Below, in pieces: positions 12,714 to 64,000 of a DNA stretch of 64,000 nucleotides. The DNA is from an uncultured Parasporobacterium sp. (GTDB lineage: Bacteria > Bacillota > Clostridia > Lachnospirales > Lachnospiraceae), in assembly GCA_963676435.2 (NCBI GenBank), contig CAXXOZ010000007.1, forward strand, positions 4,359 through 68,358, read 5' to 3'. Position numbers and translations under genes: made by a program. The first letter of the stretch is position 1. Every line of letters starts with the position of its first letter. Below the pieces are notes generated by a model that made no database searches, was not told where the DNA came from, and worked only from the letters and a program-made list of their open reading frames with translations.

Positions 12714-15700
12714 ATGAATGACCGTAAGACTTTACTTATTGCAGACGACAATAGGGTAAATCGTTTATTATTAGTTGATATTTTAAAAGAATACTATAAC
12801 ATCATAGAAGCCGAAGATGGTAAGGAGGCAATAGATGTTATTGAGGCAAATAAAGAAGATATAAGTGTAGTACTTCTTGATATTATAATGCCTAAAAAAG
12901 ATGGTTTTCAAGTTATTAGTGAAATAAGAAACCGATTAAATTTAAAGGAATTGCCAGTTATAGTAATAACTGTAAAAGATGATCCAAAAGTAGAAGTAAA
13001 GGCATTAGATTTAGGTGCAGATGATTTAGTGGTTAAACCTGTAGAGCCAAAGGTTATATTGCAACGTGTAAAAAACATGATTGAAAAGAAAGAAATGCAT
13101 CAAATCATGATAGAAAACACTAGACTCAAAGAACAGGCTGATGCACAAGCTGTTTTACAGTATAGATTGGACCATGATTCATTAACTGGAATTTATAGTA
13201 GAGATATTTTTTGTAAAGAAACCTCAAAAATGTTGGTGAAAAACCCAAAAAGTAATTATATTTTGGTATCTTTTGACATTGAAAAAATCAAACTTGTTAA
13301 TGACTTGTTTGGGAGAAAAATTGGAAATGAGATTTTAAAAGCTATAGCTGTAAGTTTAAAAATATTGCTTTCCGGAAACGGCACATACGCAAGACTAGAA
13401 TCAGATAGGTTTGCGGCTTGTTTTTCGGAAAGTTTTTTGACCCTTTTAGAATTTCAAAAAAAGATAAATGATGCAATAAAATTTATTATTCCAAATTTTA
13501 CTGTTATTTGTAAATTTGGAGCCTATAAAGTTGTAGATACTGAGGTAGATATAGATATTATGTGTGACAGAGCTCATATGGCACTACAAACCGTCAAGGG
13601 TGATTATAGCATTAATTATGTATACTATAATGATCAGATTCATGAAACACTAGTGTTGGAACAAAAAATCATTAGCGATATGGAGGAAGCCTTAGCAGGC
13701 AAACAGTTTGAAATTTATCTACAACCTATATATAGTTTATCAAAAATGAAACCAGTTTCAGCTGAAGCTCTTGTTAGATGGAATCATCCTGAGTTTGGTA
13801 TGATCTCACCAGGCATATTCATTCCGATTTTTGAAAAAAATGGATATATTGCTAAGCTTGATTATTTTGTGTGGGAACAAGCCTGTAGATTTTTAGCAAA
13901 TAGAGCTAAAAAAAATAAAGATGAAATATCAGTTTCTGTAAATGTGTCAAGATATACATTATATGATCCTGATCTTAGTAATAAAATAATTAAACTAGTA
14001 AAGAAATATGACATAAATCCTCTTCTTTTAAAATTTGAAATCACAGAAAGTGCATATACAGATAATCCAAAACAATTAATAAATACAATGGTATTATTGC
14101 AAAAATACGGCTTTAAATTATTGATGGATGATTTCGGGAGTGGATTTTCTTCATTAAATCTTTTAAAAAACCTGAATGTAGATATTTTAAAAATTGATAT
14201 GAAGTTTTTAGAAGACTTTGAAACATCTTCTAGAGGTGGAAGTATTTTCACCTCAGTGGTAAGAATGGCTAAATGGTTGAATATTCCTGTTATTGCAGAA
14301 GGCGTCGAGACAAAAGCTCAGCTGGAATTTTTAAGAGGTGTCGGCTGCGATAGCATTCAGGGTTATTATTTTTCTGAGCCATTGTCCATAAAAGAATTTG
14401 AAGAACATTTGTTGAAAAATATTGATCTTAATATTGATTCAGCGCCTAAGATAAGAGAAGAAATGGAATTTGATGAACTATTTAATGGCAATAAAATGTT
14501 GACTAGTTTGTTTAATAGTTTTGTTGGAGGTATAGGTATATACGAATTTTCACCAGCAGGGCTAGAGGTGATAAGAGTTAATGATAGATATTATGAAGTG
14601 ATGGGTTATAATCCTCAAACACTTTTTTCAGAGGGTAGAAATATTTTAAATCAACTTTATTCTGAAGAAGATAAAAACATTTTAATAGAAGGATGCAAAA
14701 AGGCCATAAAAGGTGAAAAGGTGGATGAAATAACTATAAGGCGTTATCATGCTGATGGTAATACACTGATGTGGCTAAACAGTAGTATAAGACATTTAGG
14801 TGGGGATGGTGAAATACAAATACTCTGCATTACATCAAGTGATATTACAGAAAATAAAAAAAATGAAATGCTTTTGGAAAAACAGAGTGAGGATTTAAAT
14901 CTTAACCGTTCTATAATTCAAGGGCTGTATAATAATGTTTTATGTGGGATTATTCAATATACATATGATGATTTGAAAATCTTAAATATTAATGATGAAG
15001 CTTGTAGAATACAGGGTTATCCCAATAAGGATGCTCTTTACAGAAGTATGCAAAAAAGCAAAGAAGAAAAAGAAGAAAATCCTCAATATATTGAATTGAA
15101 ATCATACCTAGAGAAATATAAAGAAACTGGAAAAAGAGTTAGTTTTGTACATGAATTTATTAAAGGTGATGGAAATGAAGGATGGGCAAAAGGAAATATT
15201 GATATAGGGATAGGTTTTGATGGGGAAAAAATTATACAATGCGTTTTTATAGATATTTCGGATCAAAAAATAAAGGAAAGAGAATCAATAGAAAGCATTA
15301 GAATTATTGAAGATATCTATAATAATGTTCCTTGTGCTATTATGCAGTTTACAATTGAAAAAAAACCAAAACTAATAAATTGTAATGAAGCAACTGTTGA
15401 ACTATATGGTTACGAAAGTTTTAATGAATTAAAAATAGCATTAAATGAAAACGTCTTTAAACATCTTCATCATGATGAGTTTGATATGGCAAATGAAAAT
15501 ATAAAGACTGTTCTGTCAAGTCAGGTAAAAAGGGATTTCCTATATAAGCTTACTAGAAAGGATGGAAGCATTTTCTGGGCTCAAGGTACAATTCATAAGA
15601 CAAAGAGTATGTCAGGACAAGAAGTTTTAGAAATTGTGTTTATTGATGTCACTGATACTGTACAAAAAAACAGGCAAAAAACAAAAATTAATGAGCTTTA

Positions 15701-16562
15701 TAAATTATTAATGGAAGACTCACAGGTAATAATATTTGATTATGATCCAACAGAAGATAAAATGAATCATACAATTTTTCTTGTTGATGGAAGAAGAAGT
15801 GAAAAAACAATAAGTAACTATCTAAAAACTATAAAACAAAATACAGGAATACATCCTGAACACAAATGTGTTTTGAAAAATACAATCAAAAAAGCATGTG
15901 AAAAACCTTGTATTGGTTCAGTTGAGTATGTGGCAGATTTTAACAATAAAGGCTATAGATGGTACAGAGTGGAATACAAGACTATTGAAGATGAAGAAAA
16001 AAATGTATTTAGGTTCATTGGAAGAGCATACGACATTCAAGATGAAATTCAGCATGCACAAGCATTGAAAAAAAGAGCTGAAACAGATTATTTAAGTGGC
16101 CTTTTAAATAGGGCTACTGCAAAAGAAATGATTGATAAAAAATTACGTAATTTTAAGAAAGAGGAAAAATTTGCATTTCTATTGATTGATATTGATAAGT
16201 TTAAGGCTATTAATGATGAGTATGGGCACTTAAAAGGAGATGAAGTCATAAAGGAAATTGGGATGACTATTAAGGAAGAATTTAGAGAAGAAGATGTTGT
16301 TTCCAGAATTGGTGGAGATGAATTTGGTGTATTTTTCTCAATTAAAAAGACAAATTCTTCAGCCTTCAGAAAATCAACAGAGTTAATTAAAAAAATAAAT
16401 GCTCTATCTGAAAAAGAAAACATTGATTTGCCAGTTTCTATTAGTGTTGGTATTGCTATTGCTCCTGACAACGGAGATGCATTTGATATGCTTTTTGCAA
16501 AAGCCGATAAAGCCATGTATGACGCTAAAAATAAAGGCGGTGGTTGTTATTGTCTTATTTAA
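12714..16562 (+). CDS. Multidomain c-di-GMP signalling protein: REC, degenerate GGDEF, EAL, several PAS domains, active-type GGDEF
   Basis: The receiver domain has LLDIIMPKKDG. The first cyclase-like domain has SDRF in place of GGDEF. The EAL domain has EALVRW and DDFGSGFSSL. PAS-like repeats lie at about aa 590-1100. The C-terminal domain has RIGGDEFGVFF. Confidence 0.9.
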   Translation: MNDRKTLLIADDNRVNRLLLVDILKEYYNIIEAEDGKEAIDVIEANKEDISVVLLDIIMPKKDGFQVISEIRNRLNLKELPVIVITVKDDPKVEVKALDLGADDLVVKPVEPKVILQRVKNMIEKKEMHQIMIENTRLKEQADAQAVLQYRLDHDSLTGIYSRDIFCKETSKMLVKNPKSNYILVSFDIEKIKLVNDLFGRKIGNEILKAIAVSLKILLSGNGTYARLESDRFAACFSESFLTLLEFQKKINDAIKFIIPNFTVICKFGAYKVVDTEVDIDIMCDRAHMALQTVKGDYSINYVYYNDQIHETLVLEQKIISDMEEALAGKQFEIYLQPIYSLSKMKPVSAEALVRWNHPEFGMISPGIFIPIFEKNGYIAKLDYFVWEQACRFLANRAKKNKDEISVSVNVSRYTLYDPDLSNKIIKLVKKYDINPLLLKFEITESAYTDNPKQLINTMVLLQKYGFKLLMDDFGSGFSSLNLLKNLNVDILKIDMKFLEDFETSSRGGSIFTSVVRMAKWLNIPVIAEGVETKAQLEFLRGVGCDSIQGYYFSEPLSIKEFEEHLLKNIDLNIDSAPKIREEMEFDELFNGNKMLTSLFNSFVGGIGIYEFSPAGLEVIRVNDRYYEVMGYNPQTLFSEGRNILNQLYSEEDKNILIEGCKKAIKGEKVDEITIRRYHADGNTLMWLNSSIRHLGGDGEIQILCITSSDITENKKNEMLLEKQSEDLNLNRSIIQGLYNNVLCGIIQYTYDDLKILNINDEACRIQGYPNKDALYRSMQKSKEEKEENPQYIELKSYLEKYKETGKRVSFVHEFIKGDGNEGWAKGNIDIGIGFDGEKIIQCVFIDISDQKIKERESIESIRIIEDIYNNVPCAIMQFTIEKKPKLINCNEATVELYGYESFNELKIALNENVFKHLHHDEFDMANENIKTVLSSQVKRDFLYKLTRKDGSIFWAQGTIHKTKSMSGQEVLEIVFIDVTDTVQKNRQKTKINELYKLLMEDSQVIIFDYDPTEDKMNHTIFLVDGRRSEKTISNYLKTIKQNTGIHPEHKCVLKNTIKKACEKPCIGSVEYVADFNNKGYRWYRVEYKTIEDEEKNVFRFIGRAYDIQDEIQHAQALKKRAETDYLSGLLNRATAKEMIDKKLRNFKKEEKFAFLLIDIDKFKAINDEYGHLKGDEVIKEIGMTIKEEFREEDVVSRIGGDEFGVFFSIKKTNSSAFRKSTELIKKINALSEKENIDLPVSISVGIAIAPDNGDAFDMLFAKADKAMYDAKNKGGGCYCLI

Positions 16563-45034: not shown

Positions 45035-45065
45035 ACGACAGTAAAGAGGCGATCTTTACTGTCGT
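45035..45065. terminator. Bidirectional terminator
   Basis: ACGACAGTAAAGA-ggcga-TCTTTACTGTCGT, a 13-bp perfect stem, followed by a T run. Confidence 0.75.
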
Positions 45066-47915: not shown

Positions 47916-49172
47916 ATGGGAGGACCAAAGCATACGATAATTTTATCAATAGATTCATTAAGTTCGCCTGATATGGAACTAATTTCTTTGTTACCTAACT
48001 TCAGAGAGTTTATTAAAAATGCTTCTATATGTGATAATGTTACATCAGTATATCCATCACTTACATATCCAGCTCATGCTACTATAATGACCGGAAATTA
48101 TCCTGTGAATCACGGGATTTTAAGTAATACCTTTTTTAAACCCAAGCAAATAAGAAAAAAATGGTATGGGCAAAGTAAGTATATTAAAGGCAAAACAATT
48201 TTTGGGGAAGCAATAAAAAGTAATATGAAAGTGGCATCAATATTATGGCCATTAACTGGGAAGTCTGGAATTCAATATTCTTTGCCGGAAATTTTCCCAG
48301 GACGATTTGAAAATCAAGTTATAGCGACATTAAGAAATGGATCAAAAAAATATATTTTTGATTTAAAAAGAAAATTTGGAAAGTTACTCAATGGAATAAA
48401 AGAACCTGAACTTGATAATTTTGTTCAAGCATCATTGTTGCATACTATAAAAAAATACAAACCAGATTTGACATTAGTTCATTTTTTAGATTTGGATGAC
48501 AGCAGACATAAATATGGGTATGCTGCACCAGAGGCTTTCAGGGCAATGGAAAGAGTAGATGAAAGACTTGGTGAAATAATTAATACTCTCAAAGAAGAAA
48601 AAATATTTGATGAAACGGCATTAATTGTATTAGGGGATCACTCACAAATTGATGTTCATACACCAATATTTTTAAATGAAAGATTTGAAAAAGATGGTTT
48701 TATTTTAAAGAAAAATGGAAAGATAAAGAATTGGAGAATATATTCAAAATCATGTGATGGCTCCTGTTATATATATATAAACAAAAAAGAAAATGAATCA
48801 TTTAAAGATGAAATATATGAATATCTATATACAATACAAGGTGAAAAAAAGAGTGGAATAAGTAAAATATATACAGGAGTTGAAGCACAAAAATTTGGAG
48901 CTTCAGACGAATGTGATTTTATGATTGAGGCTAGAATAGGTTATTATTTTGCAGATGATATAAAAAATGCAAATTATAAGGCAGCTCATGGTTATATGCC
49001 TACTATTCCTTCCTATCAGACAGTTTTTATTGCTGCAGGAAAAGGAATAAAAAGAAATATTCAGCTGAGTAATATTTCTTTAGTGGATGAGGCTCCTACA
49101 ATTGCCAAACTGATGGGTCTTGATTTAGGTAAAACAAATGGAAGGTGTATTGAAGAGATATTAGATATCTAA
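47916..49172 (+). CDS. Nucleotide pyrophosphatase/phosphodiesterase (alkaline phosphatase superfamily)
   Basis: SIDSLS, TYPAHATIMTGNYPVNHGI (nucleophile Thr context), GDHSQ, AHGY. Start lies 1 nt after the rarA stop. Confidence 0.8.
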   Translation: MGGPKHTIILSIDSLSSPDMELISLLPNFREFIKNASICDNVTSVYPSLTYPAHATIMTGNYPVNHGILSNTFFKPKQIRKKWYGQSKYIKGKTIFGEAIKSNMKVASILWPLTGKSGIQYSLPEIFPGRFENQVIATLRNGSKKYIFDLKRKFGKLLNGIKEPELDNFVQASLLHTIKKYKPDLTLVHFLDLDDSRHKYGYAAPEAFRAMERVDERLGEIINTLKEEKIFDETALIVLGDHSQIDVHTPIFLNERFEKDGFILKKNGKIKNWRIYSKSCDGSCYIYINKKENESFKDEIYEYLYTIQGEKKSGISKIYTGVEAQKFGASDECDFMIEARIGYYFADDIKNANYKAAHGYMPTIPSYQTVFIAAGKGIKRNIQLSNISLVDEAPTIAKLMGLDLGKTNGRCIEEILDI

Positions 49173-49194
49173 AAGGCTTTTCGGAGGTATTTTC

Positions 49195-52100
49195 TTGAGA
49201 GAAATAATTGGTAAACTTGCCAGAGGAATTTATGAATATGAATTACCGGTTATAATGTCGTCGGTTTCTATTATTGAAGAAACAATAGAAACGGGCATTA
49301 TTTATAATGGGAGTTTTGAACTTTATAGTGAAAATGAAGAAGAACTTAAAGGTATTGTTTATTCAACAAATGATAAATTCATTATTATAAACAATCAGTT
49401 TATCGGCAAAAGAAATAAAATTAATTTTAAAGTGCTTACTGAGTTCACAGAAATTAGGGATAATGTTTCTGGAAATATTAATATTGTGAGCAATGGTGGG
49501 GAAATAGTAATTCCATTCAAAATAAATATTGAACCTGCAGGTATTAAAACTACCAGTGGTATAATAAAAACATTAGATGAGTTTGTAGAATTAGTTATTA
49601 ATAGTTATGATGAAGCACTGAAAATTTTTGAATCTAATAACTTTGAGAAATGTTTTTTAATGGAAACACCAAAATATAACTCGGTCTATAAAGGCTTGAT
49701 TAGAGGGACTGACAAAAAAATTGCCTTAGAAGAGTTCCTTGTTTTTATTGGAAAGAAAAACAAAGTGTCCCTTTCTTTATCAGAGTATGGTAGAAATTAT
49801 GAAAACCTTGATGATTCTTATGGTGATTCATTTATATTAAAAAAAGAGCACTGGGGATATGTTGAAATTGAAACTCAGGTAAAAGGAGATTTTATAAAAG
49901 TTGCTAACTATAATATAGATTCAGATATGTTTGCAGGAAACAGTTATGAGTTTGTTTATTTTATAAATTATAACAAATTATTTAATGGTCTTAACATTGG
50001 GGAAATCATATTTAAAACTCATAATCAAACTGTTAAATTTGACATAGTAGTTGACAATAAAAAAGAAGAAAAAACAAGTATTAATAAAAAAGAATTATAC
50101 TTTTATAAACTATATAGAAATTATCTAGAATTTAAGTTGAATAAAATAAGTGTTGAAAAATGGGCAAATAATTCCCTAGAGATTTTGGAAAAGGAACTGT
50201 TTGAAGATTCTCAAAAACAACTAATTAAGGCATGGATTTTTTTACTTTCAGATAATAAAAACACAGCATCTGAAATTTTAGAAGATGTAGCCGCAGATGT
50301 TATTCAAGAAAAAGCGAATAATGTAGAAGACTACTGTTTTTTTATGTTCCTCAGGGCAATTGAAAAAAAAGATAATGCATATACTCATGAAACTATATTG
50401 AAAATCAAAGACTATTATGAAAACGGTTATGATTCAGATATGCTTTTATTGATGATGTTATATTTAAATGAGGATTATGAAAATAATCAAAGTCTAATAT
50501 TTGCAAGGCTAAAAGAACGATTTATGAATGGAAATAGAAGTCCCTTTATATATTTTGAAGCTCTAAAAATACTAAATGAGCTTCCAGAACTGCTTCGAGT
50601 TTTAAATTCATTTGAACTTCAGGTTTTAAATTTTGGAGCAAAAAATAGGATTATAAACGAAGAATTAGCATTGCGATTATCTGAGCTTGCTTTAGAACAA
50701 AAAGATTGTAAGCCTATTCTTTTTAGATTATTAAATTATTTATTTGATATATATATGAATAATGTTGCTTTAGAGGCAATATGTACATTACTAATACGTG
50801 AAGAAAAAACTGAACAAAAATATTTTAAGTGGTATGAAGCAGGTGTTAAAGCAAACTTAAAGATAACAAAATTGTTTGAATATTATATGTTGTCTGTGAG
50901 TACAGATTATATGGGAGAATTGCCGCGCAGTGTACTTCTATATTTTCTTTATAATGCATCAGTATTAGCTGAAAAACAAAGCTTTTTATACTTTAATATA
51001 GTTATCAATAAAGAACAACATCCTAATATTTATAGAAGCTACATTAAAAGAATAGAAAAATATGCGGTAGAAAATTTAGCTCAAGGAAATATTGATGAAT
51101 TTCTATCAGTTATTTATAAAAAAGTCCTAAATGAATCATTGATGAACACTGAAATAATAAAAAAACTTCCAGAAGTTATTCATACATATAAAATAGAATG
51201 TGATAATGAAAATGTAAGAAAGGTAATTGTATGCCATAAAGAACTGAATGAAGAGTTTGAAGTTAAAATAATAAACAATGAGGCATATATTAAGATTTTT
51301 TCATCAGATGTAGTAATTATTTTCGAAGATTTTTTTGGTAGAAGATATGTAGAAAGTGTTGATTACAGGCTTGACAAGCTATTTTATGACGAGGAATTCG
51401 TAAAGTTCTGTATTGAATATAGCCCATATAACAAATATATGCTTATGGCTTACACAAAAAATGTATTAAAACATATTAAAGATCATCATAAGATATTAAG
51501 GATTTTGAAAAGTGGAATAGATGAGGATGATTACAGATTATATTTTGCAAAAGCAATCATGCAAGATACAGTAGAGTATTATTATGAAAATTATGACAAT
51601 GAAATAATCGATGAGTATCTTGTATTATTTAATAAGTCAAAGATGAATTCTTTTACTAGAAAAAAAGTTATAGAATTAATGATAATTAGAGGTATGTATG
51701 ATGAAGCATTTTCACTATTCTTAAAATATGGTAATGAAAATGTAGATCCAGGAAAAATTGTAAAATTCTGTACTAGAAGTTTTGACAAAAATGGAATGGA
51801 ATTTGATCCTATATATTTGGACTTATGTGCATACGCTTATAGAAATGGCAAATATAATGAATTGGTACTAAAATATTTAAGTATGCATTATTATGGCTTA
51901 ACAAAAGAAATGATAAACTTATGGGAATCATCAATTGGCTTTGAGTATGAAAACAGAGAACTTGAAGAAAGGTTAGTAGTTCAGATACTTTTTGCAAAAA
52001 CATACTTAAATTATCTAGTAAATATATATGACTCCTACCAAGAAAAAGGTGCAAATAGCGAAGTAAAACGAGCATATCTTTTTTTTAAATCATGTGAATA

Positions 52101-52731
52101 TTATTTACATGATAGTGTGACGGATGAAAAGTTTTTTAATCATCTTGAAAGCCAAATTGGTGAAATGCAAAAAATGGAAGAAATGTGTAAAATTGCGTTC
52201 TTAAAGCATATATCGGGAAAAGAAATCTTAACAAACAACCAGGAAAATAAATGTAAAGATATTATACTCGAACTTTCTAATAAAAAAATAAGACTTCCGT
52301 TCTTTGGGATTTTTTCAAAATGGTTTGATTTACCATATTCTTTAAGGGATAAGTATATTGTAGAATACAAATCAAACCCATCAAACAAAGTATATATTAG
52401 TTATGTATTGGAAACTGGAAAACTTGATGAAAAGAAATATGAGAAAGAGTTAATGACTCAAATATGTCAGGGGATTTTTGTCAAAGAGTTTATAATTTTT
52501 TATGGAGAAAGTATTCAATATTACATTGTTGAAACAGACTCTTTTGAGGATGTTTTAACAGAAAGTGTAAACTTTAAATATCTTGATGAATTTGAAAATG
52601 ATGAAAGTAGATATGGAAGTTTAAATAATATGATGCTGTCGTTGGAAATGAATGATGAAAAAACATTTAATATAATTGCAGAAAATTATAATTTGAATTT
52701 AGAGTTGGTAGATAGGCTTTTTACAAAGTAA
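49195..52731 (+). CDS. 1178-aa protein of unknown function (two N-terminal beta-sandwich-like modules, long helical-repeat body, beta-rich C-terminus), possibly DUF5717 family
   Basis: Uninterrupted ORF with a TTG start 7 nt after GGAGG. No catalytic motif recognised. Family name is recalled from annotations of Clostridia and is unverified. Confidence 0.75.
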   Translation: MREIIGKLARGIYEYELPVIMSSVSIIEETIETGIIYNGSFELYSENEEELKGIVYSTNDKFIIINNQFIGKRNKINFKVLTEFTEIRDNVSGNINIVSNGGEIVIPFKINIEPAGIKTTSGIIKTLDEFVELVINSYDEALKIFESNNFEKCFLMETPKYNSVYKGLIRGTDKKIALEEFLVFIGKKNKVSLSLSEYGRNYENLDDSYGDSFILKKEHWGYVEIETQVKGDFIKVANYNIDSDMFAGNSYEFVYFINYNKLFNGLNIGEIIFKTHNQTVKFDIVVDNKKEEKTSINKKELYFYKLYRNYLEFKLNKISVEKWANNSLEILEKELFEDSQKQLIKAWIFLLSDNKNTASEILEDVAADVIQEKANNVEDYCFFMFLRAIEKKDNAYTHETILKIKDYYENGYDSDMLLLMMLYLNEDYENNQSLIFARLKERFMNGNRSPFIYFEALKILNELPELLRVLNSFELQVLNFGAKNRIINEELALRLSELALEQKDCKPILFRLLNYLFDIYMNNVALEAICTLLIREEKTEQKYFKWYEAGVKANLKITKLFEYYMLSVSTDYMGELPRSVLLYFLYNASVLAEKQSFLYFNIVINKEQHPNIYRSYIKRIEKYAVENLAQGNIDEFLSVIYKKVLNESLMNTEIIKKLPEVIHTYKIECDNENVRKVIVCHKELNEEFEVKIINNEAYIKIFSSDVVIIFEDFFGRRYVESVDYRLDKLFYDEEFVKFCIEYSPYNKYMLMAYTKNVLKHIKDHHKILRILKSGIDEDDYRLYFAKAIMQDTVEYYYENYDNEIIDEYLVLFNKSKMNSFTRKKVIELMIIRGMYDEAFSLFLKYGNENVDPGKIVKFCTRSFDKNGMEFDPIYLDLCAYAYRNGKYNELVLKYLSMHYYGLTKEMINLWESSIGFEYENRELEERLVVQILFAKTYLNYLVNIYDSYQEKGANSEVKRAYLFFKSCEYYLHDSVTDEKFFNHLESQIGEMQKMEEMCKIAFLKHISGKEILTNNQENKCKDIILELSNKKIRLPFFGIFSKWFDLPYSLRDKYIVEYKSNPSNKVYISYVLETGKLDEKKYEKELMTQICQGIFVKEFIIFYGESIQYYIVETDSFEDVLTESVNFKYLDEFENDESRYGSLNNMMLSLEMNDEKTFNIIAENYNLNLELVDRLFTK

Positions 52732-52742
52732 AAGGGTAAAAT

Positions 52743-53979
52743 ATGGTAGTAGGAATTGATTATACAGAAGAATATACTCAAATTAGCTATGCTATACAGG
52801 GGATGAAAACACCAGAAACTGTTAGCATCTCTTTTGGTGAAAAAAAAATATCTAATTCCCTCAATGGTGTCAAAAGGGAAAGGTAATGATGAGTGGCTAA
52901 TAGGAGAAGAAGCATTTCAAAGTGTGAAAAATGGTGAAACTTGTTTTTTTAAAAACTTACTAAGTAAGGCTGTTTGGGATGAAGTAGAGTTTATAGAAGA
53001 TACAGAGTATAATTATGTTGAAATATTTAAAATATTTGCTGAAGAAATAATAAAAATCCTAAAAAGAGCAGTAAACAATGACCAAATAGAAAAAATAATT
53101 TTTACTATAGAAAAGGTTAATAAAGAAAATTCGGATTTTATTAAACAAATTTTTATTGATTTAGGATTTTCAGATATTCAGATTGAAATAGTGAGTCATT
53201 CAGAAAGCCTAGCATACTACATACTAAAGCAACCAAAAGACATTTGGACTTTTGATATAGTGTTATTTGATTTTGGATCATCTTATTTTATATATAGAAA
53301 ATTGAAAGTGCAAGGATCAAAAAAACCAGTAATTGTAAAGATTGAGGAAGAAGATTTAAGCGAAATCATGAATGCTCAAACTGCTGAAGATGAGGTTTTC
53401 TTAAAATTACTAGAAGAGAGGTTATCAGAGGAAAGTATTTCAAGTGTATATCTAAACGGTATAGGTTTTTCAGGTGACTGGATGACAAAATCTATAGAAT
53501 ATATTTGTCAAGGAAGAAGAGCGTTTAAAGGTCAGAATATTTTTTCTAAAGGGGCCTGCTATGGTGCTATGACATCAAAACTTTTGGATAATAGTGAGTA
53601 TAGTATTTTATGCAATGATAGAAATAAAATCAACATATCAATTTTAATTGATGAAGATGGAGTTAAAAAGCAGCTTTATTTAATGAAAGCTGGTGAAAAC
53701 TGGTATGAAACGGGAGCAAAACTTGAAGGGTTTATAGATGAGGATAGAAAAATACAATTAATTATTAATAATCCATTTTTAAACGAACAACATCCCGTGG
53801 AGATAGACCTATCAGTTTTTCCTATTAGAGAGTTTAAGAAAAGCAGGATAGAAATAGTAATGATTGTTAAATCAGAAGATGAAATTATTTATTTAATAAA
53901 AGATTTAGGATTTGGAGATTTTTTTAAAGGTACAAACAAGATAGTTGAAAAAACAATTTATGCCAGTGATTATGCGTAG
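52743..53979 (+). pseudogene. Hsp70/actin-fold (ASKHA) protein with degenerate nucleotide-binding loops, possibly DUF5716; reading frame broken in an A9 run
   Basis: ATG 52743 gives MVVGIDYTEEYTQISY...ISFGEKK, then a +1 frame change in the A9 run at 52840-52848, then YLIPSMVSKG...WLIGEEAF. Collinear with DnaK NBD motifs (see findings). Confidence 0.7.
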
Positions 53980-53991
53980 AAAGGATTATCT

Positions 53992-54826
53992 ATGAGTGGG
54001 TTGATATTATGTAATTTAAGCTCTAAAGAGCCTTATTATATTACAGAATTAAATATAAAAGTTTTTTCAATCGAAGAGATAGGCTACTTCTTGTTTAATC
54101 ATGCACATCTTGTGGGAAAAGATTTTTTTAATGAGAATCTTTTAAAATATTTAAAGGAAGATTTTAAAGCTTACTAAAGTATCTGAAAAGCTTAAAGAAA
54201 AATTAGAAAATGATTCTCCTCTAGGAGATTTAATATATTTACTTGTTTCAGAATCAGGCTATTTTAACAATGAAGATCTTAGAGAGTTTTCAGAATTACT
54301 TCCTCAAGTTTCTTTGAAAAGTACTCACGAAAGATTTAAAGCAAAAGCAGATGTTTTTTACGAGTATAATAAATATGAAAGTGCCATTCATGAATATTAT
54401 AAAATATTAAACTTAAAAAGAGATTTTAACCTTTCATCAAGTTTTTATAGTGATATACTAAATAAAATTGGTACTATATATTCGAAGCTTTTTCTTTTTG
54501 AAGAAGCACTAGAGTATTTTAAAAAGGCATATGATTTATCAAGAGATGAGAGATATATAAGAAATATTTTAAACATTTGTTTCATATTGGATGATGAAAA
54601 AAAAATATTAGAACATACAGTTAAGTATGAACTAGAAGATATTTTTGTTGAGATATGCAAAGAAGAGTTTGAAGAAATAAAAAATGAAGTTGAAAAAGGT
54701 AAATCTCATGTATTATTAAAAGAAAAGTTAAGTTATGAGATGTTCAATGAAATAGGAAAAAGTAATATTGAATTTCAGGATTTAATAGATGAATGGAAAG
54801 AAGAATATAGAGACTTAATGGTGTAA
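53992..54826 (+). pseudogene. TPR-like helical protein, reading frame broken at about 54155-54175
   Basis: Two pieces (53992-54177, then the frame open from 54155 to 54826) join as ...LKYLKED(L)KLTKVSEKLKEKLEND.... TPR-like segment: AKADVFYEYNKYESAIHEYYKILN...EEALEYFKKAYDL. Confidence 0.6.
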
Positions 54827-54829
54827 AAG

Positions 54830-55939
54830 ATGAAATTATTTAAAAATAAAAAACAAAAAAATAAAGAGAAATCAAAGGATAGCAACTTAAGTCTGGTAAA
54901 AGAAAGTTGCGAAACTATTTTAAATGCTTCTGAGATAATAGAAGAAGCCAAAATAGAAAAAAGCATTTTAAAAATATACTATGAAGATGTTTTATTGCTA
55001 GACGGTATACCTCAAAATAATAAAGAAGAGATCTTTTCTCTTGCCCGAAAAATTAGTTCTTTAAATGAAGAAAGAGAAGAAATTGAAAAATCTTCCGTAA
55101 AAATCGAAAAGGACAAATATGAGTATGTTAGAAAAAATGAAAAAGCAATTTCAAAGTCAATTGAAAGAATGACAGAAAGTGAAAAAAGGCTAAGTTTGGT
55201 TAAAAGTGACTTGAATAAACTTGAGGGAGAAAGAGAAGCCTTAAAGGTTGAAAAAAGGGAACTTAAAAATAAGTTAAACGTGTTGCAGAATACCTCAAAA
55301 CTTGCTATTATTCTATTAATGATTGTCTTTGTTATCTGTATAATACTAGACTTCGTTTTTGAGTTTGATTCCCAAATTATTATTTTAGTCTCTATTGGTT
55401 TAGCTATTATTGCTGCCTTATTAATATTTATTTTTCATAGGAAAATATTATACAATATTAAACTAACAGATATTAAATTAAACAAAATAATTTCTTTGTT
55501 AAACAAGGTTAAAATAAAATATGTCAATGTAATGTCTACACTTGATTATGTTTATGAAAAAAATAAGGTTAACAGTTCATACGAATTGAGTAGCTTATGG
55601 GGAAATTATATAACATCTCAAAAAGATAAAGAAATTTATGACAAAGTATTAGATAGATTATATAATACTGGAGAAAAATTAATAGATTTATTATCAAGTT
55701 ATAATTTAAAAGAACCAGAAATATGGATTTCAGGGGCAGGAAATATGACTGATGAATCTAGTTTTCAAAAGTATAAAGAAGAAATAAAAACTCAGATATT
55801 AGAAAAAGAATCTGAAATAATAAAAAACAATAAAGATATCGAAGATTCAAAAGAAAACATTAAAAAACTAATGCAAAATGATAATGTTGAACCAGAGGAA
55901 ATAATTAGAATAGTTGAGCAATACGAAGACATTCTATAA
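54830..55939 (+). CDS. Coiled-coil protein with a central two-TM hairpin
   Basis: 369 aa. K/E-rich heptad-like N- and C-terminal halves. Two hydrophobic helices: [20 protein letters not shown] and [20 protein letters not shown]. Confidence 0.8.
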
Positions 55940-55974
55940 AATATATATTTTTTAGACAGGAAGGGAAACATAAA

Positions 55975-58644: not shown

Positions 58645-60033
58645 GTGGAATCAAATTTTTCAAAATATGTGAGGTTTAGATTAAGTGCAGATGATATGTA
58701 CGCATATCTTACTTTGATTTCCCCATTTAGTCCTCAAGAAGAAGATATTTTTTTACTAGATGATATTGTGGAATACATAGAAATGATGGGTGTTACAAAA
58801 GGTATTAAAAAAAATGTAATTCAAGATATTATTAGTTTAAAAAAGTATGACGAAGAATTTTGTGTAGCAAAAGGATTACCTTCAAAAGATGGTAGAGATG
58901 GATACTTTGAATTTAAAGTAAATCTAAACAAAAATAAGAATTTAGGTTTTTTAAAGGATGATTCTTTAGACTACTCAAATATTGATTTAACTCCAAGTAT
59001 TAAAAAGGGAGAAGTTATAGCAACATATATTTCTAAAACAGATGGTGAAGATGGGTTTGATATAAAGGGGAATATTTTAAATGCTAAAAAAAGTAAAGAT
59101 TTACCAAAGTTAACTGGAACAGGATTTCAAATCATTGACGATGGTAAAACATATATTGCTTCAAAAGATGGCAAGATAGAATTGCATGAAAATAAATTAG
59201 AAATATCTGATATGTATACAATAAAAGGTGATGTGGATGAATCCACAGGAAATATCTTTTATAATGGAGATTTAGAAATACTAGGAAATGTCAAGTCAGG
59301 TATGAAGGTTAAAGTGTCAGGAAATCTATTAGTAGTTGGTAAGGTTGAAGCATCTCACTTAGAATCCACCAAGGCTATTTTAATAAAAGGTGGGGTCATG
59401 GGTGGAGACAGAGCATTTATAAGCGCAGGTGGAAATGTGTTAGCAAGTTTTATCGAAAGGGCTCATGTGATTTCGGATCAAACTGTTCGTGCAGGCTCAA
59501 TACTTTTATCTTATGTTTTTGCAAATAAAGGAATTATTGTTGATGGAAAAAAGGGAAGTATTGTTGGTGGTCAATTAAAGGCAACGAATATTATTTCAGC
59601 AACAAATATTGGATCTTTATCTGAAACAAAAACAGAAATCACAGTAGGTCTGGATAAATTTCTTTATGAGAGACAAGTTTACCTAGTGAATGAAACAAAA
59701 AGAATTAAAAAAGATATAGAAAAAATTGACGAAGTTATATTAATATTAGATACAGACTTATCTATAAGAAATGGACCAGAAATAAAGAGAAAGTTAACAA
59801 GGGCAAAATTAGAAAAATTATCAATGCTTAGTAGAAATAAATTAGAAATCGATGAAATTACAGAAAAGATTAGCACATCTCATGACGCAAAGGTTGAAGT
59901 TAAAAGTTATGTCTATCCAGGTGTAATTATAAGTGTTGATTCATACAAATTAGATGTTGAAAAAGAAGATAAAAGTGTTGATTTTATTAGACGAGGCGAT
60001 AAAGTATTAAGCCAAACATTAGACTCAATGTAG
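58645..60033 (+). CDS. FapA/DUF342 family protein (beta-helix, polymer-forming type), GTG start
   Basis: N-terminal LSADDMYAYLTL, repeated GN/GG-containing beta-helix turns (GNLLVVGKV..., GGVMGGD...), C-terminal coiled coil. Confidence 0.7.
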   Translation: MESNFSKYVRFRLSADDMYAYLTLISPFSPQEEDIFLLDDIVEYIEMMGVTKGIKKNVIQDIISLKKYDEEFCVAKGLPSKDGRDGYFEFKVNLNKNKNLGFLKDDSLDYSNIDLTPSIKKGEVIATYISKTDGEDGFDIKGNILNAKKSKDLPKLTGTGFQIIDDGKTYIASKDGKIELHENKLEISDMYTIKGDVDESTGNIFYNGDLEILGNVKSGMKVKVSGNLLVVGKVEASHLESTKAILIKGGVMGGDRAFISAGGNVLASFIERAHVISDQTVRAGSILLSYVFANKGIIVDGKKGSIVGGQLKATNIISATNIGSLSETKTEITVGLDKFLYERQVYLVNETKRIKKDIEKIDEVILILDTDLSIRNGPEIKRKLTRAKLEKLSMLSRNKLEIDEITEKISTSHDAKVEVKSYVYPGVIISVDSYKLDVEKEDKSVDFIRRGDKVLSQTLDSM

Positions 60034-60049
60034 AAAGGAATTTATTAAA

Positions 60050-60196
60050 ATGATTGATTTTGATGAAGAAATTAAAAAATTTCAACCATGTCTTGAAGTA
60101 GATGAGGTAGAAGAAGCGATTTACAAAAATAATGTTACAGATATGACAGATGTTATGTTAGAGATGATGAAAGATTTAGCGAAAAATAAAGAGTAA
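60050..60196 (+). CDS. 48-aa highly acidic small protein
   Basis: MIDFDEEIKKFQPCLEVDEVEEAIYKNNVTDMTDVMLEMMKDLAKNKE. AAAGGA RBS. Fits exactly in the gap between two coupled genes and is too short for the ORF track. Confidence 0.5.
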   Translation: MIDFDEEIKKFQPCLEVDEVEEAIYKNNVTDMTDVMLEMMKDLAKNKE

Positions 60197-60213
60197 TTTT
60201 AGAGAGGATTATT

Positions 60214-61596
60214 ATGAAATGTTATAATTGTGGAAGGATTCTTTCGGGGGGAGATCTCTGTGCAACATGTGGCGTAGATGTTACTGTTTTCAAAAAAATT
60301 GTTAAACTTTCAAATCAATATTACAATGAGGCTCTAAAAAAGGCTCACATTAGAGATTTGACAGGTGCGATAGATTATTTGAATAGAAGTTTGCATATGT
60401 ACAAAGAAAATATTGCAGCAAGGAATCTTCTTGGTTTGATATATTTTGAAATTGGAGAAGTAGTTCCAGCTTTAACAGAGTGGGTAATAAGTAAGAATAT
60501 TGATTCTCTTGATAATCCAGCAGATGAATATATTAATCAGGTTCAAAATGATCAGACAGGACTTGAACTAATTAATCAAACAATAAAGAAGTATAACCTT
60601 GCCCTTAACTATGCTAATCAGGATAGTGACGATTTAGCTATTATACAGTTGAAAAAGATATTAAATTCAAATTCAAGATTTATGCGAGGGCATCAGTTAT
60701 TAGCTCTTTTATTTATAAAAAATAATGATTATTTAGGTGCGAAAAAGGCATTAAAAAAATCTTTAAAAATTGATAATACTAATACTCTTAGCTTGACCTA
60801 CTTAAAAGAAGTTGAAGAAAAATTAAAAGATGAAGAACAAAACGCAAAAGGATTTTTTAAAAGAAGAAAATCAAAGAAAAAAGCAGAAGAAGAAAGAAAA
60901 AGTCTTAGTGGAAATGATGTGATTATACCCACTGGATATAAAGATACAAACCTTGGAGCAGCTACTGTCATATATATCCTAATAGGAATCATTATAGGAG
61001 CAGCCATGGTATTTTTCATAGTAACACCTGCAAAAAACAGAGCAGATAAGACAGAGTATGAAAATACAATACTTGAGCTTGAAGAGGAGGTTGCCAAAAT
61101 AACAGCAAACAATTCGGAGCTTTCTTCTAGTATAGATGTTTTAACTGAAGAAAATGAAGAATACAAGGACAAGGTAGATTTAGATACCAGCATGAAAACT
61201 TATTATGACTCACTATTGGCAGCTCAAACATATTTTAGAGAAGGTAATTACCTTTCAGGAGCTGAAGAATTGTTGAAAATCAAATCAACAGATGGTATGA
61301 CAAGTACATTTATGGGTATATACGATCAGATTTACAGTCCTATGACAGTATATGCATCAAATTATTATTACAATTCAGGAATGAATCAATACTATTCTAG
61401 AAATTATTCAAAAGCAATTGAGTATTTATCTATGTCATATGAATATAATAACGAAAATGCAAATGCTTTGGTGAATCTTGCTATTGCATATAATGATAAT
61501 GATGATGTAGACAATGCAACAAAATATTTTAATCAGGTTATAGAGTTGTTCCCTGGAACCTCACAGGCATCAAAAGCTGAAACATATTTGAATTAA
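60214..61596 (+). CDS. Zinc-ribbon plus TPR protein with a single TM helix
   Basis: CYNCG...CATCG zinc ribbon, cytoplasmic TPRs, K-rich linker, TM helix (AATVIYILIGIIIGAAMVFFIV), coiled coil, extracytoplasmic TPRs. Confidence 0.75.
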   Translation: MKCYNCGRILSGGDLCATCGVDVTVFKKIVKLSNQYYNEALKKAHIRDLTGAIDYLNRSLHMYKENIAARNLLGLIYFEIGEVVPALTEWVISKNIDSLDNPADEYINQVQNDQTGLELINQTIKKYNLALNYANQDSDDLAIIQLKKILNSNSRFMRGHQLLALLFIKNNDYLGAKKALKKSLKIDNTNTLSLTYLKEVEEKLKDEEQNAKGFFKRRKSKKKAEEERKSLSGNDVIIPTGYKDTNLGAATVIYILIGIIIGAAMVFFIVTPAKNRADKTEYENTILELEEEVAKITANNSELSSSIDVLTEENEEYKDKVDLDTSMKTYYDSLLAAQTYFREGNYLSGAEELLKIKSTDGMTSTFMGIYDQIYSPMTVYASNYYYNSGMNQYYSRNYSKAIEYLSMSYEYNNENANALVNLAIAYNDNDDVDNATKYFNQVIELFPGTSQASKAETYLN

Positions 61597-61606
61597 TATA
61601 AAAAAA

Positions 61607-61632
61607 AGCCCTTGAAATTTTTTTCAAGGGCT
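61607..61632. terminator. Bidirectional terminator ending the long + strand operon and the PBP gene
   Basis: AGCCCTTGAAA-tttt-TTTCAAGGGCT with an A run upstream and a T run downstream. Confidence 0.8.
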
Positions 61633-61644
61633 CAAATTTTATTA

Positions 61645-64000
61645 TTAAGGCGAAGGAGGTGCTTCCGTAGTAGTTTCTTCTTCTGTTGTAGTTTCCTCTT
61701 CACCTGTGTGTAGTTTACATACCGTATCTAAAAAGCCTTTAGGTATTTCAAATTCTGTATCAGCAGTTGTACCTTCAGAGCCTTCAGGTCTGATTCTGTA
61801 TACTACAGTTTCAGTATCAGGACAGTAGCTTGTAGCTAAATCCCCACTATCCTCACATACAGTTAAAGCTATATGTGCATCACAGGTTTCTGTTGGAACA
61901 GTACCAGCTGCAAAGTATTCAGTGTATACTGTAGAACCACCAGGGTCTGCATTACAAAGACCATCTACTGCTAGTTTACCAGATTTTGAACATATTGAAG
62001 CTGTTACAATATTACCTGGCATTGGCATAATGGTTTTGTTTCCATAACCTTTTTCAGAGTGTACCTGACTCATTATTTTGCTCCAAATAACTTTATGATA
62101 TACCCAGTCAGACATTTCTAGATTTTCATCATGTCCCATCCATACAGCCGCTGTTAAATATCCAGAGTATCCAACAAACCAAAGGTCATTTCTACTTGAT
62201 GTTGTACCAGTTTTACCTGCTACAGTGAGTCCTGGAACTGCTGCTGGTGTACCAGTTCCTTTTGTAACAACGTCCTGCATAGCACTATTTAATAACCATG
62301 CGGTTGAGTCTTTCATAACTGTTTCAGTTTCTGGTTCATTGTCTATAATAACTCGTCCGTTTTTATCAAGGATTTTTGTATATAATATTGGTTCTGTATA
62401 AGTTCCACTATTTGCTATGGTAGCATATGCAGCACAAAGTTCAATATTTGTAACACCCTGACCTATACCACCAAGGGCAAGAGCCTGAACCACATCTTCA
62501 GTTGTAATAGTTGAAAAACCAAACTTTTGTAAATATTCATAACCTGTATATGTACCCACATCTGTTGAAGTCTTTACAGCAAGAATGTTCATTGAATGCC
62601 AAATACCTTTTCTTACTGTGTTCAGACCTTCATATCCTGAGTACCAGTTTTTGATATATGTTCCATTAGCATAGGCATATGGAGCATCGTCAATGGCGGT
62701 TCCTAGTGTATATCCTCCAATATCAAGGGCAGGAGCATAAGCTGCTAAAACCTTAAATGTTGAACCAGGTTGTCTAGTTGTGTCTGTGGCTCTGTTTAGT
62801 GTTAAACTTCCAGTTTTTTCTCCTCGTCCACCTACCAGAGCTTTTACTTCACCAGTGTGCTGATCCATAATGGAGAATGAAACCTGAGGTTGAATAGTAT
62901 AAGTAATATCAGTTTCAGCAAGTGTTTCTCCACCCACTGTTGACAATTTGTATTCCTTAAATTCATCTATACATTCTACAATATCCTCTTTCGAATTAAA
63001 GTTCAAAGTGAAGTTTGAGTCACCTTTTACAGTTCTATAGTAGTTGTAAATATGACCTTTTGAGTAGTTGTGATTTACACCTTCTTCATCTGTTAAAGTC
63101 CATGCCCAGTCAAATGAATAGTAAATTTTATCAGGATAATTACTTTCGTCTGTAAGGACATCATCACATATTTGTTGAATCTCAGAATCTTGAGTAGAGT
63201 ATATCTGCAAACCACCTTTGTATAATGCATCATATGCCTGACTTGCTGAATATCCTTTTTCTTCCTGTAAATCTTCAAGTACCTGTTCGATTAATGCATC
63301 TGTAAAATATGTATATATTGCTGTGTTTGATTTACCAGCAGTATTTGCCTGAATTCGTGAATAAATATCATCATTTATTGCTTCATCATATTCTTCTTGA
63401 GTAATATGACCGTTTTTAAGCATGTTACTTAAAACTTTAGCTCTTCTTTCCGCATTTTTTTCTGGATATGAAGAAGGGTTATAAGTAGGGTTTTGTGCAA
63501 TTGCTGCCAAAACAGCACTTTCAGAAATAGTAAGCTCTGAAACCTCCTTACCAAAATAATACGAAGTAGCTGTAACAACACCATAGTTTCCAGCACCTAA
63601 ATTTATTGTATTTAGATAATTCTCTAATATAATGGATTTATCCATTTCTTTTTCGATTTCTAGGGCTAAATATTGCTCTTGAATCTTTCTTTTTACAAGA
63701 GAACCCATATTTGTCTCGAATCCACCACTTTCAAAGACGTTATTTTTTATAAGCTGCTGTGTAATCGTACTTGCACCTTCAAAGCCTGAACCAGATAGAG
63801 TAACAAAAGCTGCTCTTAAAATACCTTGAAGGTCAATTCCTTTGTGTTCGTAGAAACGCTCATCTTCAATGTCTACAAAAGCATACTGAAGACATTCTGG
63901 CATTTCATCAATTGAAATATCGGTTCTGTTTGAACCGTCTGTAGAAATACTTGTTGCCAATTCTCCGTCAGAATAGTAAACTTTTGTCGCATAAGCAGAA
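61645..64000 (-). CDS. Class A penicillin-binding protein (PBP1A-type transglycosylase/transpeptidase), N-terminus outside window
   Basis: GT51 motifs (EDERFYEHKGID, GASTITQQL), transpeptidase motifs STFK and KTGTT. The ORF stays open to the window edge. C-terminal EEETTT x2 tail. Confidence 0.9.
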   Translation of the reverse strand, partial: SAYATKVYYSDGELATSISTDGSNRTDISIDEMPECLQYAFVDIEDERFYEHKGIDLQGILRAAFVTLSGSGFEGASTITQQLIKNNVFESGGFETNMGSLVKRKIQEQYLALEIEKEMDKSIILENYLNTINLGAGNYGVVTATSYYFGKEVSELTISESAVLAAIAQNPTYNPSSYPEKNAERRAKVLSNMLKNGHITQEEYDEAINDDIYSRIQANTAGKSNTAIYTYFTDALIEQVLEDLQEEKGYSASQAYDALYKGGLQIYSTQDSEIQQICDDVLTDESNYPDKIYYSFDWAWTLTDEEGVNHNYSKGHIYNYYRTVKGDSNFTLNFNSKEDIVECIDEFKEYKLSTVGGETLAETDITYTIQPQVSFSIMDQHTGEVKALVGGRGEKTGSLTLNRATDTTRQPGSTFKVLAAYAPALDIGGYTLGTAIDDAPYAYANGTYIKNWYSGYEGLNTVRKGIWHSMNILAVKTSTDVGTYTGYEYLQKFGFSTITTEDVVQALALGGIGQGVTNIELCAAYATIANSGTYTEPILYTKILDKNGRVIIDNEPETETVMKDSTAWLLNSAMQDVVTKGTGTPAAVPGLTVAGKTGTTSSRNDLWFVGYSGYLTAAVWMGHDENLEMSDWVYHKVIWSKIMSQVHSEKGYGNKTIMPMPGNIVTASICSKSGKLAVDGLCNADPGGSTVYTEYFAAGTVPTETCDAHIALTVCEDSGDLATSYCPDTETVVYRIRPEGSEGTTADTEFEIPKGFLDTVCKLHTGEEETTTEEETTTEAPPSP

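Follow-up and report, generated by a model that had tools for sequence, protein, structure and literature searches.

The 64,000-nt stretch considered here (hereafter the window), from an uncultured Parasporobacterium sp. (GenBank assembly GCA_963676435.2, contig CAXXOZ010000007.1), contains four consecutive genes on the + strand, designated g1 to g4, that form one conserved operon across Lachnospiraceae-type Clostridia. The second gene encodes a true but heavily reduced homologue of the Hsp70 chaperones, and its companions encode a large DUF5717 protein (g1), a tetratricopeptide repeat (TPR) protein (g3) and a protein with two transmembrane helices (g4). Known already were the Pfam DUF families; the module itself is uncharacterised, and is a real and conserved, reduced Hsp70-paralogue module. 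Lachnospiraceae are among the dominant bacteria of the human and animal gut.

An initial annotation of this DNA had listed the four co-directional genes with spacers of 11, 12 and 3 bp, all of which can be read directly in the sequence (Table 1), and had taken each gene to be continuous. This last point is incorrect, as g2 and g3 are each interrupted by a +1 frameshift, at an A9 and a T4 run, respectively, that had been overlooked; both proteins are discussed here in their repaired forms. The set had also been put forward as a candidate undescribed system, and no match to a characterised machinery was found through NCBIfam, PDB profiles, Foldseek, PADLOC or the literature. Literature searches found no report on the module, the names DUF5717 and DUF5716 appearing in full text only in an unrelated study, and nothing relevant on Hsp70-like or TPR proteins in Lachnospiraceae.

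A reduced Hsp70 homologue and its three neighbours

The description of g2 as Hsp70-like with degenerate ATP loops is borne out by profile searches, Foldseek and alignment alike. Repaired g2 belongs to Pfam DUF5716_C (PF18980), which it matches over amino acids (aa) 117-405 with an E-value (E) of 2.8e-86 and 289.6 bits, against a cut-off of 34.7. A sequence profile of the g2 family (30 sequences) matches only DnaK, at E 2e-5, with the C-terminal strands weakly aligned to the β-sandwich substrate-binding domain (SBD-beta) of DnaK. The predicted structure (predicted local distance difference test, pLDDT, 91.3; predicted template-modelling score, pTM, 0.88) contains a nucleotide-binding domain (NBD) of ~280 aa, and the 50 best Foldseek PDB matches listed for it are all Hsp70s (best E 2e-19), with SBD-beta included in the alignments. 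Lidless DnaK constructs, Sse1 and Ssz1 are among the matches listed (6sr6, 5mb9, 7x3k). Homology in both sequence and fold thus extends over the NBD and SBD-beta, as in the Hsp70 superfamily, and the nearest relatives of g2 are all Hsp70s rather than the actin-like ATPases MreB, ParM or FtsA.

The extent of the reduction is apparent from an alignment of g2, DnaK and the Defluviitalea relatives described below, for which the Escherichia coli DnaK sequence was entered by hand and whose N-terminal part agrees with an independent PDB-profile alignment. Among the residues of the Hsp70 ATP site (D8, T11-T12, K70, E171 and D194-G198-T199), only the equivalent of D8, which is D6 in g2, is invariant in Lachnospiraceae. 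The glycines of the adenosine motif are also kept and invariant, while the phosphate-1 GTT, K70, E171 and the phosphate-2 GGGT are replaced by variable residues. All Lachnospiraceae g2 sequences lack the ~90-100 residues that correspond to lobe IIB of DnaK but keep lobes IA, IB and IIA along with the β-sandwich SBD. Lobe IIB, to which GrpE binds, makes up half of the nucleotide cleft, and half of the cleft of g2 is therefore gone. Additionally, g2 ends ~10 residues past the last SBD-beta strand and so has no helical lid (SBD-alpha). On this pattern of residue loss, g2 is probably ATPase-dead. A dedicated J-domain protein or exchange factor was likewise not found: g1 to g4 have no DnaJ or GrpE Pfam match, and a tblastn search of 17 Lachnospiraceae-type loci and of the window detected no GrpE-like gene. 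No second Hsp70 lies beside the module in this same set, with the exception of locus L009, where an unlinked Hsp70 is situated ~8 kb 5' of g1.

The 1178-aa product of g1 matches both DUF5717 models of Pfam (PF18984, PF18983), with DUF5717_N at E 1.4e-269 and the DUF5717 C-terminal model at E 1.3e-83 (897 and 281 bits, cut-offs 25; aa 1-867 and 875-1176). Together with the match of g2, this confirms the names DUF5717/DUF5716 that the initial annotation had given. The AlphaFold2 model of g1 (pLDDT 86) places two β-sandwiches at aa 20-124 and 192-287, close to the segments proposed earlier (1-115 and 190-290). The helical body and β-rich C-terminus that had been predicted are also present in the model, as helical repeats at 295-662 and 733-1051 and a β domain at 1053-1128 followed by terminal helices; a small β domain at 664-728, set between the two runs of repeats, had been missed. 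Foldseek returns only local matches for this protein, with template-modelling (TM) scores of at most 0.14 and sequence identities of 6-12%. Locally, the sandwiches resemble ASH/PapD-type immunoglobulin-like (Ig) domains (Hydin-like proteins, CEP192, 2qsv), and the helical body is similar to TPR super-helix scaffolds (Ski3, Ctr9, Naa15, IFT-A); against viral structure models, only generic Ig/BACON and Sel1 matches were obtained. The model contains no enzyme fold, the invariant columns of the family alignment hold no catalytic-looking His/Cys/Ser/Asp pattern, the g1 profile finds no homologue among PDB sequences, and hydropathy indicates no transmembrane segment. As modelled, g1 is a non-enzymatic scaffold of Ig-like and TPR-like modules. 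NCBI names it simply a 'DUF5717 family protein'. The family is tight in length (~1180-1200 aa) and large, the DUF5717 profile matching 3527 representative clusters at E <=1e-3 and 1361 at E <=1e-30 (clustered at 50% identity). DUF5717 alone thus accounts for ~3500 representative clusters, yet no literature dedicated to it was found.

The TPR-like character that had been ascribed to g3 is supported by its PDB profile and by Pfam matches in its orthologues. The protein begins with a conserved, family-specific domain of ~100 aa (MSGLILC...NIYS.EEL.YY), for which no match was found anywhere, continues with ~2-3 TPRs at aa ~110-205 and closes on a conserved C-terminal W..EYR. Over aa ~110-205 the g3 profile matches consensus TPR proteins of the PDB at E 1e-25, placing g3 among the TPR proteins. 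A Pfam TPR_2 match is found in 13/14 orthologues, with the window protein itself falling just under the cut-off.

The central transmembrane hairpin proposed for g4 is recovered by hydropathy, with 19-residue Kyte-Doolittle windows peaking at 3.3, and is also found in the orthologues of loci L032-L034. As only five residues connect the two helices, both soluble halves of g4 would lie on the same, presumably cytoplasmic, side of the membrane. The N-terminal half is charged, helical and variable in length among orthologues (to ~660 aa), and the C-terminal half comprises a conserved domain (KLNKA..LLNK.K.KYVN...SSYEL). The longest forms, in L007 (7117-8865), L009 (15633-17147) and L012 (11248-13230), carry long, low-complexity, Lys/Glu-rich N-terminal extensions that bring the whole protein to ~500-660 aa, indicating that the presumed cytoplasmic N-terminal arm is highly variable in length. 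No Pfam, PDB-profile or PADLOC match was obtained for g4, and its one NCBIfam match, the only one among g1 to g4, is sub-threshold and far under the cut-off. The possibility that g4 is a degenerate GrpE was ruled out, since hhalign of the g4 family against the GrpE-like protein of Defluviitalea gives a probability of 0.2%.

Distribution of the module and an expanded relative

A g1-anchored pattern scan, using two peptide patterns and one genome per species, identified 14 Lachnospiraceae-type loci; because only two patterns were used, these represent a sample and not a census. By tblastn, the order g1-g2-g3 is kept in 14/14 of these loci where the contig reaches far enough, with spacers that are short or overlapping. 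The claim that all four genes co-occur in relatives therefore stands for g1 to g3 at every evaluable locus, but for g4 at only 12/15, and g4 is an accessory part of the module and not a universal one. In most of the g1-anchored loci rarA is situated just 5' of the module, and valS lies 3' where it was detected (L004, L005, L010). Three g2-anchored loci (L032-L034) hold all four genes in the same order between unrelated flanks, namely a P-type ATPase and cotJA/B, an EAL protein and CoaBC, and a LiaF-like protein and AhpC; their g3 and g4 orthologues match the family profiles at E 1e-48 to 1e-90. The module is thus found in at least four different genomic contexts, and the conservation of gene order despite unrelated flanks indicates that the four genes travel as a unit. 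Relative to L015, an assembly of the same species, the ratios of nonsynonymous to synonymous substitution rates (dN/dS) are 0.057 for g1, 0.118 for g2, 0.134 for g3 and 0.056 for g4, with neighbouring genes at 0.014-0.054.

The most distant DUF5717 proteins occur in Defluviitalea saccharophila, D. phaphyphila and metagenome-assembled genomes labelled 'Epulopiscium sp.'. Lachnospiraceae and Defluviitaleaceae both belong to the order Lachnospirales in current taxonomy. The cluster that surrounds these distant proteins was seen in L020 10001-23900 (D. saccharophila CP121687), L016-L018 and L022-L028, and its composition was taken from four loci. Its seven genes encode, in order, DUF5717, a 558-559-aa Hsp70, a 644-aa protein whose long helical N-terminal region is joined to a C-terminal GrpE domain, two further Hsp70s of ~523-546 aa that also match DUF5716_C, a 691-692-aa Hsp70-VWA fusion and a 387-390-aa TPR protein. 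The TPR gene marks the end of the cluster, since the genes beyond it differ between loci, with MsrB in L022 and, in L027, a WYL regulator together with a type I CRISPR-Cas locus. No J-domain gene was seen in it. Canonical ATP motifs are present in 3/4 of these Hsp70s, the paralogues keeping GIDLGTTNS, the K70 context, EP.AAA and DLGGGTFD, and lobe IIB is present in 4/4.

Profiles link this cluster directly to the Lachnospiraceae module. The g2 profile finds the two DUF5716-type Defluviitalea paralogues at 6e-47 and 8e-32, and that of g3 finds the terminal TPR gene at E 1e-28, its N-terminal domain included; the g4 profile has no match in the cluster. The core common to both versions consequently consists of DUF5717, a DUF5716-type Hsp70 and a g3-type TPR protein. 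By itself, the Defluviitalea cluster seems to constitute a multi-Hsp70 system not described before, and it provides a matched 'full' version for comparative biochemistry. The four-gene module of Lachnospiraceae would then be a streamlined form of an Hsp70-paralogue machine.

Interrupted reading frames, proposed role and alternatives

As written in the window, g2 consists of an open reading frame (ORF) at 52743-52886 (47 aa) followed by a second frame at 52834-53979, and g3 consists of an ORF at 53992-54177 (61 aa) followed by a second frame to 54826. With a single base deleted at each site, g2 and g3 encode proteins of 411 and 277 aa, which homologues match from end to end as single tblastn high-scoring segment pairs and which contain no further lesions. 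In two assemblies of the same species, L015 (98.85% identical) and L021 (98.5%), the runs are A8 and T3, and both genes are intact. The break in g2 is present in the deposited record, where the 87,333-bp contig with the exact g1 and g4 of the window encodes a 371-aa g2, the size of the post-frameshift ORF from its first ATG (MVSKGKG...), and it was therefore not made by windowing. Programmed frameshifting at the A9 run was considered and rejected, as the same-species alleles are A8 and in frame.

The two frameshifts are most likely homopolymer assembly errors and not signs of operon decay, a judgement based on L015 and L021 being intact at both sites, on the lack of further lesions once the genes are repaired and on homopolymer indels at other places, among them those in the g1 of L021. 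That the operon is really decaying or phase-variable here, with genuine A9 and T4 lesions and with g2 and g3 as pseudogenes or expressed through slippage, is distinctly unlikely, though several observations speak for it. The two frameshifts are no more than 1.3 kb apart, in neighbouring genes of the same operon, and L021 has two different homopolymer indels that split its g1 into three pieces. Across the three same-species assemblies, all 4/4 coding 1-nt indels in ~21 kb (window 42744-63963) fall in g1-g3, at positions 50237, 51456, 52840 and 54162, with 0 in the ~13 kb of flanking genes. However, each lesion lies in a homopolymer and is private to one assembly, the other two being intact at that site, and the repaired genes show dN/dS values of 0.12-0.13. 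The contig names contig_55 and ctg96346l also suggest long-read assemblers, as far as names can tell. A further homopolymer frameshift interrupts an unrelated gene for a β-CASP/RNase J-like metallo-β-lactamase (2371-3977, +), which points to general assembly error. Its ORF 2371-3660 holds Lactamase_B and Beta-Casp, while ORF 3600-3977 begins in the middle of the RMMBL domain; the break lies near 3586-3592 (motif ...GIS|FHAD...), apparently through TT where TTT is needed. In practical terms, two of the four genes in the record would be mis-called as fragments or pseudogenes, probably through homopolymer errors.

With regard to function, we propose that the module encodes a reduced, nucleotide-independent, membrane-tethered Hsp70-derived scaffold complex, a proposal whose chances we regard as evenly balanced. 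The loss of lobe IIB alongside that of the GrpE-like gene, together with the loss of catalytic residues, argues for a nucleotide-independent role of g2. An ATP-driven, self-contained Hsp70 machine would have been streamlined into the Lachnospiraceae module, in which the one remaining Hsp70, g2, would have stopped nucleotide cycling to become a permanent clamp or structural subunit. Its SBD-beta might hold an extended segment of g1, g3 or g4, by analogy with the way that Ssz1 holds a segment of zuotin. The g1 protein would serve as a large interaction platform, or as the entity held, g3 would bridge the partners as an adaptor, and g4, where present, would be an optional tether that keeps the assembly at the cytoplasmic face of the membrane. 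A family-wide Hsp70 derivative under purifying selection without lobe IIB, lid or catalytic residues would amount to a natural Hsp70 turned structural subunit.

Several observations weigh against this proposal. The loss of ATPase activity is read solely from the loss of motifs, and the invariance of D6 and the adenosine-motif glycines means that g2 may still bind nucleotide. The interactions among g1 to g4 are putative, and the Defluviitalea form may have arisen by expansion rather than the Lachnospiraceae form by reduction. Because g4 is missing from L004 and L005, where valS directly follows g3, from L014 and from the clusters of Defluviitalea, the core does not require membrane tethering. 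Lastly, the clustering of indels in g1-g3 leaves room for real loss-of-function variants, given that these genes hold only ~34% of the homopolymers of >=6 bases in the region and that the T3/T4 site in g3 is not a long homopolymer; the excess is mild and was noticed post hoc.

The initial annotation had left a choice between a scaffold, a chaperone and a cytoskeletal machine. Its domain assignments hold, but the cytoskeletal option is disfavoured because g2 is an Hsp70 derivative with SBD-beta. Indeed, it is hardly credible that g2 forms actin-like filaments of the ParM/MreB/FtsA type and that the module is a cytoskeletal apparatus: the ASKHA fold is common to actin-like proteins and Pfam MreB_Mbl weakly matches the Defluviitalea paralogues, but the Foldseek matches listed and the sequence profile lead exclusively to Hsp70s and DnaK, and g2 carries an Hsp70-type substrate-binding domain that actin-like proteins do not have. 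Unlikely, in our estimate, is a chaperone that is still active, in which g2 would use a non-canonical ATP site or the housekeeping DnaK/DnaJ/GrpE to act on g1, or on some other large client, at the membrane by folding, holding or assembling it. Such a role would suit a true Hsp70 homologue with its SBD-beta preserved, the invariance of D6 and the adenosine-motif glycines, and relatives in Defluviitalea that have complete ATP sites and a GrpE-like factor of their own, and HscC, which works with membrane-anchored J-proteins, is a precedent for a membrane-directed specialised Hsp70 (PMC8215388). It is difficult to reconcile with the replacement of phosphate-1 GTT, K70, E171 and phosphate-2 GGGT by residues that are not conserved in the family, with a nucleotide cleft of which half is gone, and with the lack of a J-domain protein, GrpE or second Hsp70 in the module or next to it.

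An anti-phage or biological-conflict system, akin to the NTP-dependent conflict systems with Hsp70, GrpE, vWA and TPR components (Kaur et al. 2020), was also considered and is judged very unlikely. GTPase-centric systems of Firmicutes do carry Hsp70, GrpE, vWA and TPR-fused FNIII-repeat proteins (PMC7159879), the Defluviitalea cluster has Hsp70 paralogues, GrpE, VWA and TPR, and its copy in L027 adjoins type I CRISPR-Cas. Against this, no TRAFAC-clade GTPase or GAP1 component was found in the 7-10 kb that flank each locus on both sides. A small GTPase upstream in L019 is three genes apart from g1 (the first being LytR) and looks like a housekeeping protein of the EngB type. No effector-type domain is present, and the defence models of PADLOC 2.0 give nothing for g1, g3 and g4 and one chance-level match for g2 (E 0.0087). 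Moreover, the module is single-copy with its gene order kept family-wide, in the g1-anchored loci mostly between rarA and valS, and is under purifying selection comparable to that of housekeeping neighbours.

Returning to the Hsp70-derived scaffold, a wider claim may be put forward tentatively, as one that we doubt somewhat more than we believe: that Lachnospirales possess an unrecognised fourth prokaryotic Hsp70 lineage devoted to DUF5717. In Defluviitaleaceae this lineage would work as an autonomous machine of four Hsp70 paralogues with a GrpE-like exchange factor of its own and a VWA module, and in Lachnospiraceae it would be reduced to a nucleotide-independent pseudo-Hsp70 without lobe IIB, in a permanent, membrane-tethered scaffold with DUF5717, the TPR adaptor and the two-transmembrane coiled-coil protein. 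A review of the prokaryotic Hsp70s recognises only DnaK, HscA and HscC (PMC8215388). If the claim is true, the module would serve a core process in one of the most abundant families of gut bacteria.

Genomic setting and comparison with known systems

The coordinates of the module and of its notable features are given in Table 1. A Shine-Dalgarno-like sequence precedes every start from g1 to g4, and the start of g1 is backed by homologues with a common MKE/MRE...KL N-terminus.

Table 1. Features of the four-gene module, in window coordinates
Feature	Coordinates	Strand	Basis
Shine-Dalgarno GGAGG, 7 nt 5' of the g1 TTG	49183..49187	+	Read from sequence
g1, DUF5717 protein, 1178 aa, TTG start	49195..52731	+	Pfam, AlphaFold2 model
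g2, DUF5716 Hsp70 paralogue, 411 aa once repaired, interrupted in window	52743..53979	+	Pfam, profile, model
A9 homopolymer, +1 frameshift in g2	52840..52848	+	A8 in two same-species assemblies
g3, TPR adaptor, 277 aa once repaired, interrupted in window	53992..54826	+	Alignment, profile
T4 run, +1 frameshift in g3	54162..54165	+	T3 in two same-species assemblies
g4, coiled-coil/two-transmembrane protein, 369 aa	54830..55939	+	Alignment, hydropathy
Coding region of the g4 two-transmembrane hairpin, aa ~157-203, 5-residue loop	55298..55438	+	Kyte-Doolittle

Strong bidirectional terminator-like hairpins are found only at 45035-45065 and 61607-61633, and the gap between g4 and valS is 35 bp (55940-55974); on these grounds, g1 to g4 may belong to a longer transcript, extending from rarA as far as the 60214-61596 TPR gene. 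Within g4, a promoter-like site (55638-55666, 11/12 matches) may drive valS. Promoter scanning was uninformative overall (93 sites against 97 expected). In Firmicutes a T-box usually precedes valS; an Rfam search of the whole 64-kb window returned no family, T-box included.

Several neighbouring features were also observed. Between rarA and g1, this species has a 418-aa gene of the phosphodiesterase/alkaline-phosphatase family (47916-49172, +), which looks like a lineage-specific insertion given that the gap between rarA and g1 is 10-130 bp in other Lachnospiraceae loci. On the 3' side of valS (58645-61596, +) lie genes for a 462-aa FapA_N/FapA (DUF342-type) protein, a 48-aa ORF annotated in the sister assemblies and a TPR protein of 460 aa, the last of which also lies 3' of valS in L004 and L005; this group closes at the strong bidirectional terminator at 61607-61633. 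The minus-strand 771-aa ORF at 61645-63960, which has no assigned family, is 18 nt shorter than in both sister assemblies through an in-frame deletion at 61684-61688, within low-complexity TTC repeats close to its 3' end. Elsewhere in the window, a 1282-aa protein (12714-16562, +) combines receiver, EAL, several PAS and GGDEF domains as a large cyclic-di-GMP signalling protein, and its gene directly follows a tig-clpP-clpX-lon-engB block named from ORF sizes and order only.

Among known systems, DnaK/DnaJ/GrpE is the one to which g2 is homologous, in NBD lobes IA, IB and IIA and in the β-sandwich SBD. The Defluviitalea relatives remain close to it, as they keep the ATP motifs and their gene adjoins a GrpE-domain gene, whereas lobe IIB, the lid and the phosphate-1, K70, E171 and phosphate-2 residues are missing from g2. 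The Lachnospiraceae module is also without a J-domain protein or GrpE, and the partners of g2 are instead the 1178-aa DUF5717, TPR and two-transmembrane proteins. HscC of E. coli offers a second comparison, being a specialised Hsp70 paralogue that is encoded beside the tail-anchored J-proteins DjlB and DjlC, has NBD deletions and does not use GrpE (PMC8215388). Similarly, g2 is a specialised paralogue beside the gene for a membrane-anchored partner; HscC, however, has ATP-binding residues, a lid and use of a J-domain, and g2 has none of these.

The GAP1-N2 GTPase-centric conflict systems of Firmicutes comprise Hsp70, GrpE, an extra Hsp70 without the peptide-binding domain, vWA proteins and FNIII-repeat (β-sandwich) proteins fused to TPRs (PMC7159879, section 29). 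This list of components resembles the Defluviitalea cluster, but neither the GTPase nor the GAP1 that defines those systems occurs at any of the loci examined, effector domains are lacking and placement is syntenic. The likeness of g1 to eukaryotic TPR and ASH/MSP-type Ig proteins (Ski3, Ctr9 and Naa15; Hydin and CEP192) is one of local fold only, and concerns shared building blocks without homology of the whole protein.

By analogy, the closest functional precedent for g2 would be Ssz1 in the eukaryotic ribosome-associated complex (RAC) with zuotin. Ssz1, an atypical Hsp70, serves there as a stable structural subunit, its SBD holding a segment of its partner as a pseudo-substrate, and 6sr6 is a solved Ssz1 structure with such a pseudo-substrate on the SBD. 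We take this segment to be zuotin. The parallel has its limits, as Ssz1 keeps all four NBD lobes and binds ATP, whereas g2 is without lobe IIB, and the partner of Ssz1 is a J-protein in a complex on ribosomes, whereas here there is no J-domain and the anchor is a membrane protein. If the proposed role is correct, the Lachnospiraceae module would nonetheless be a bacterial equivalent of the pseudo-chaperone scaffolds of which Ssz1 in RAC is an example.

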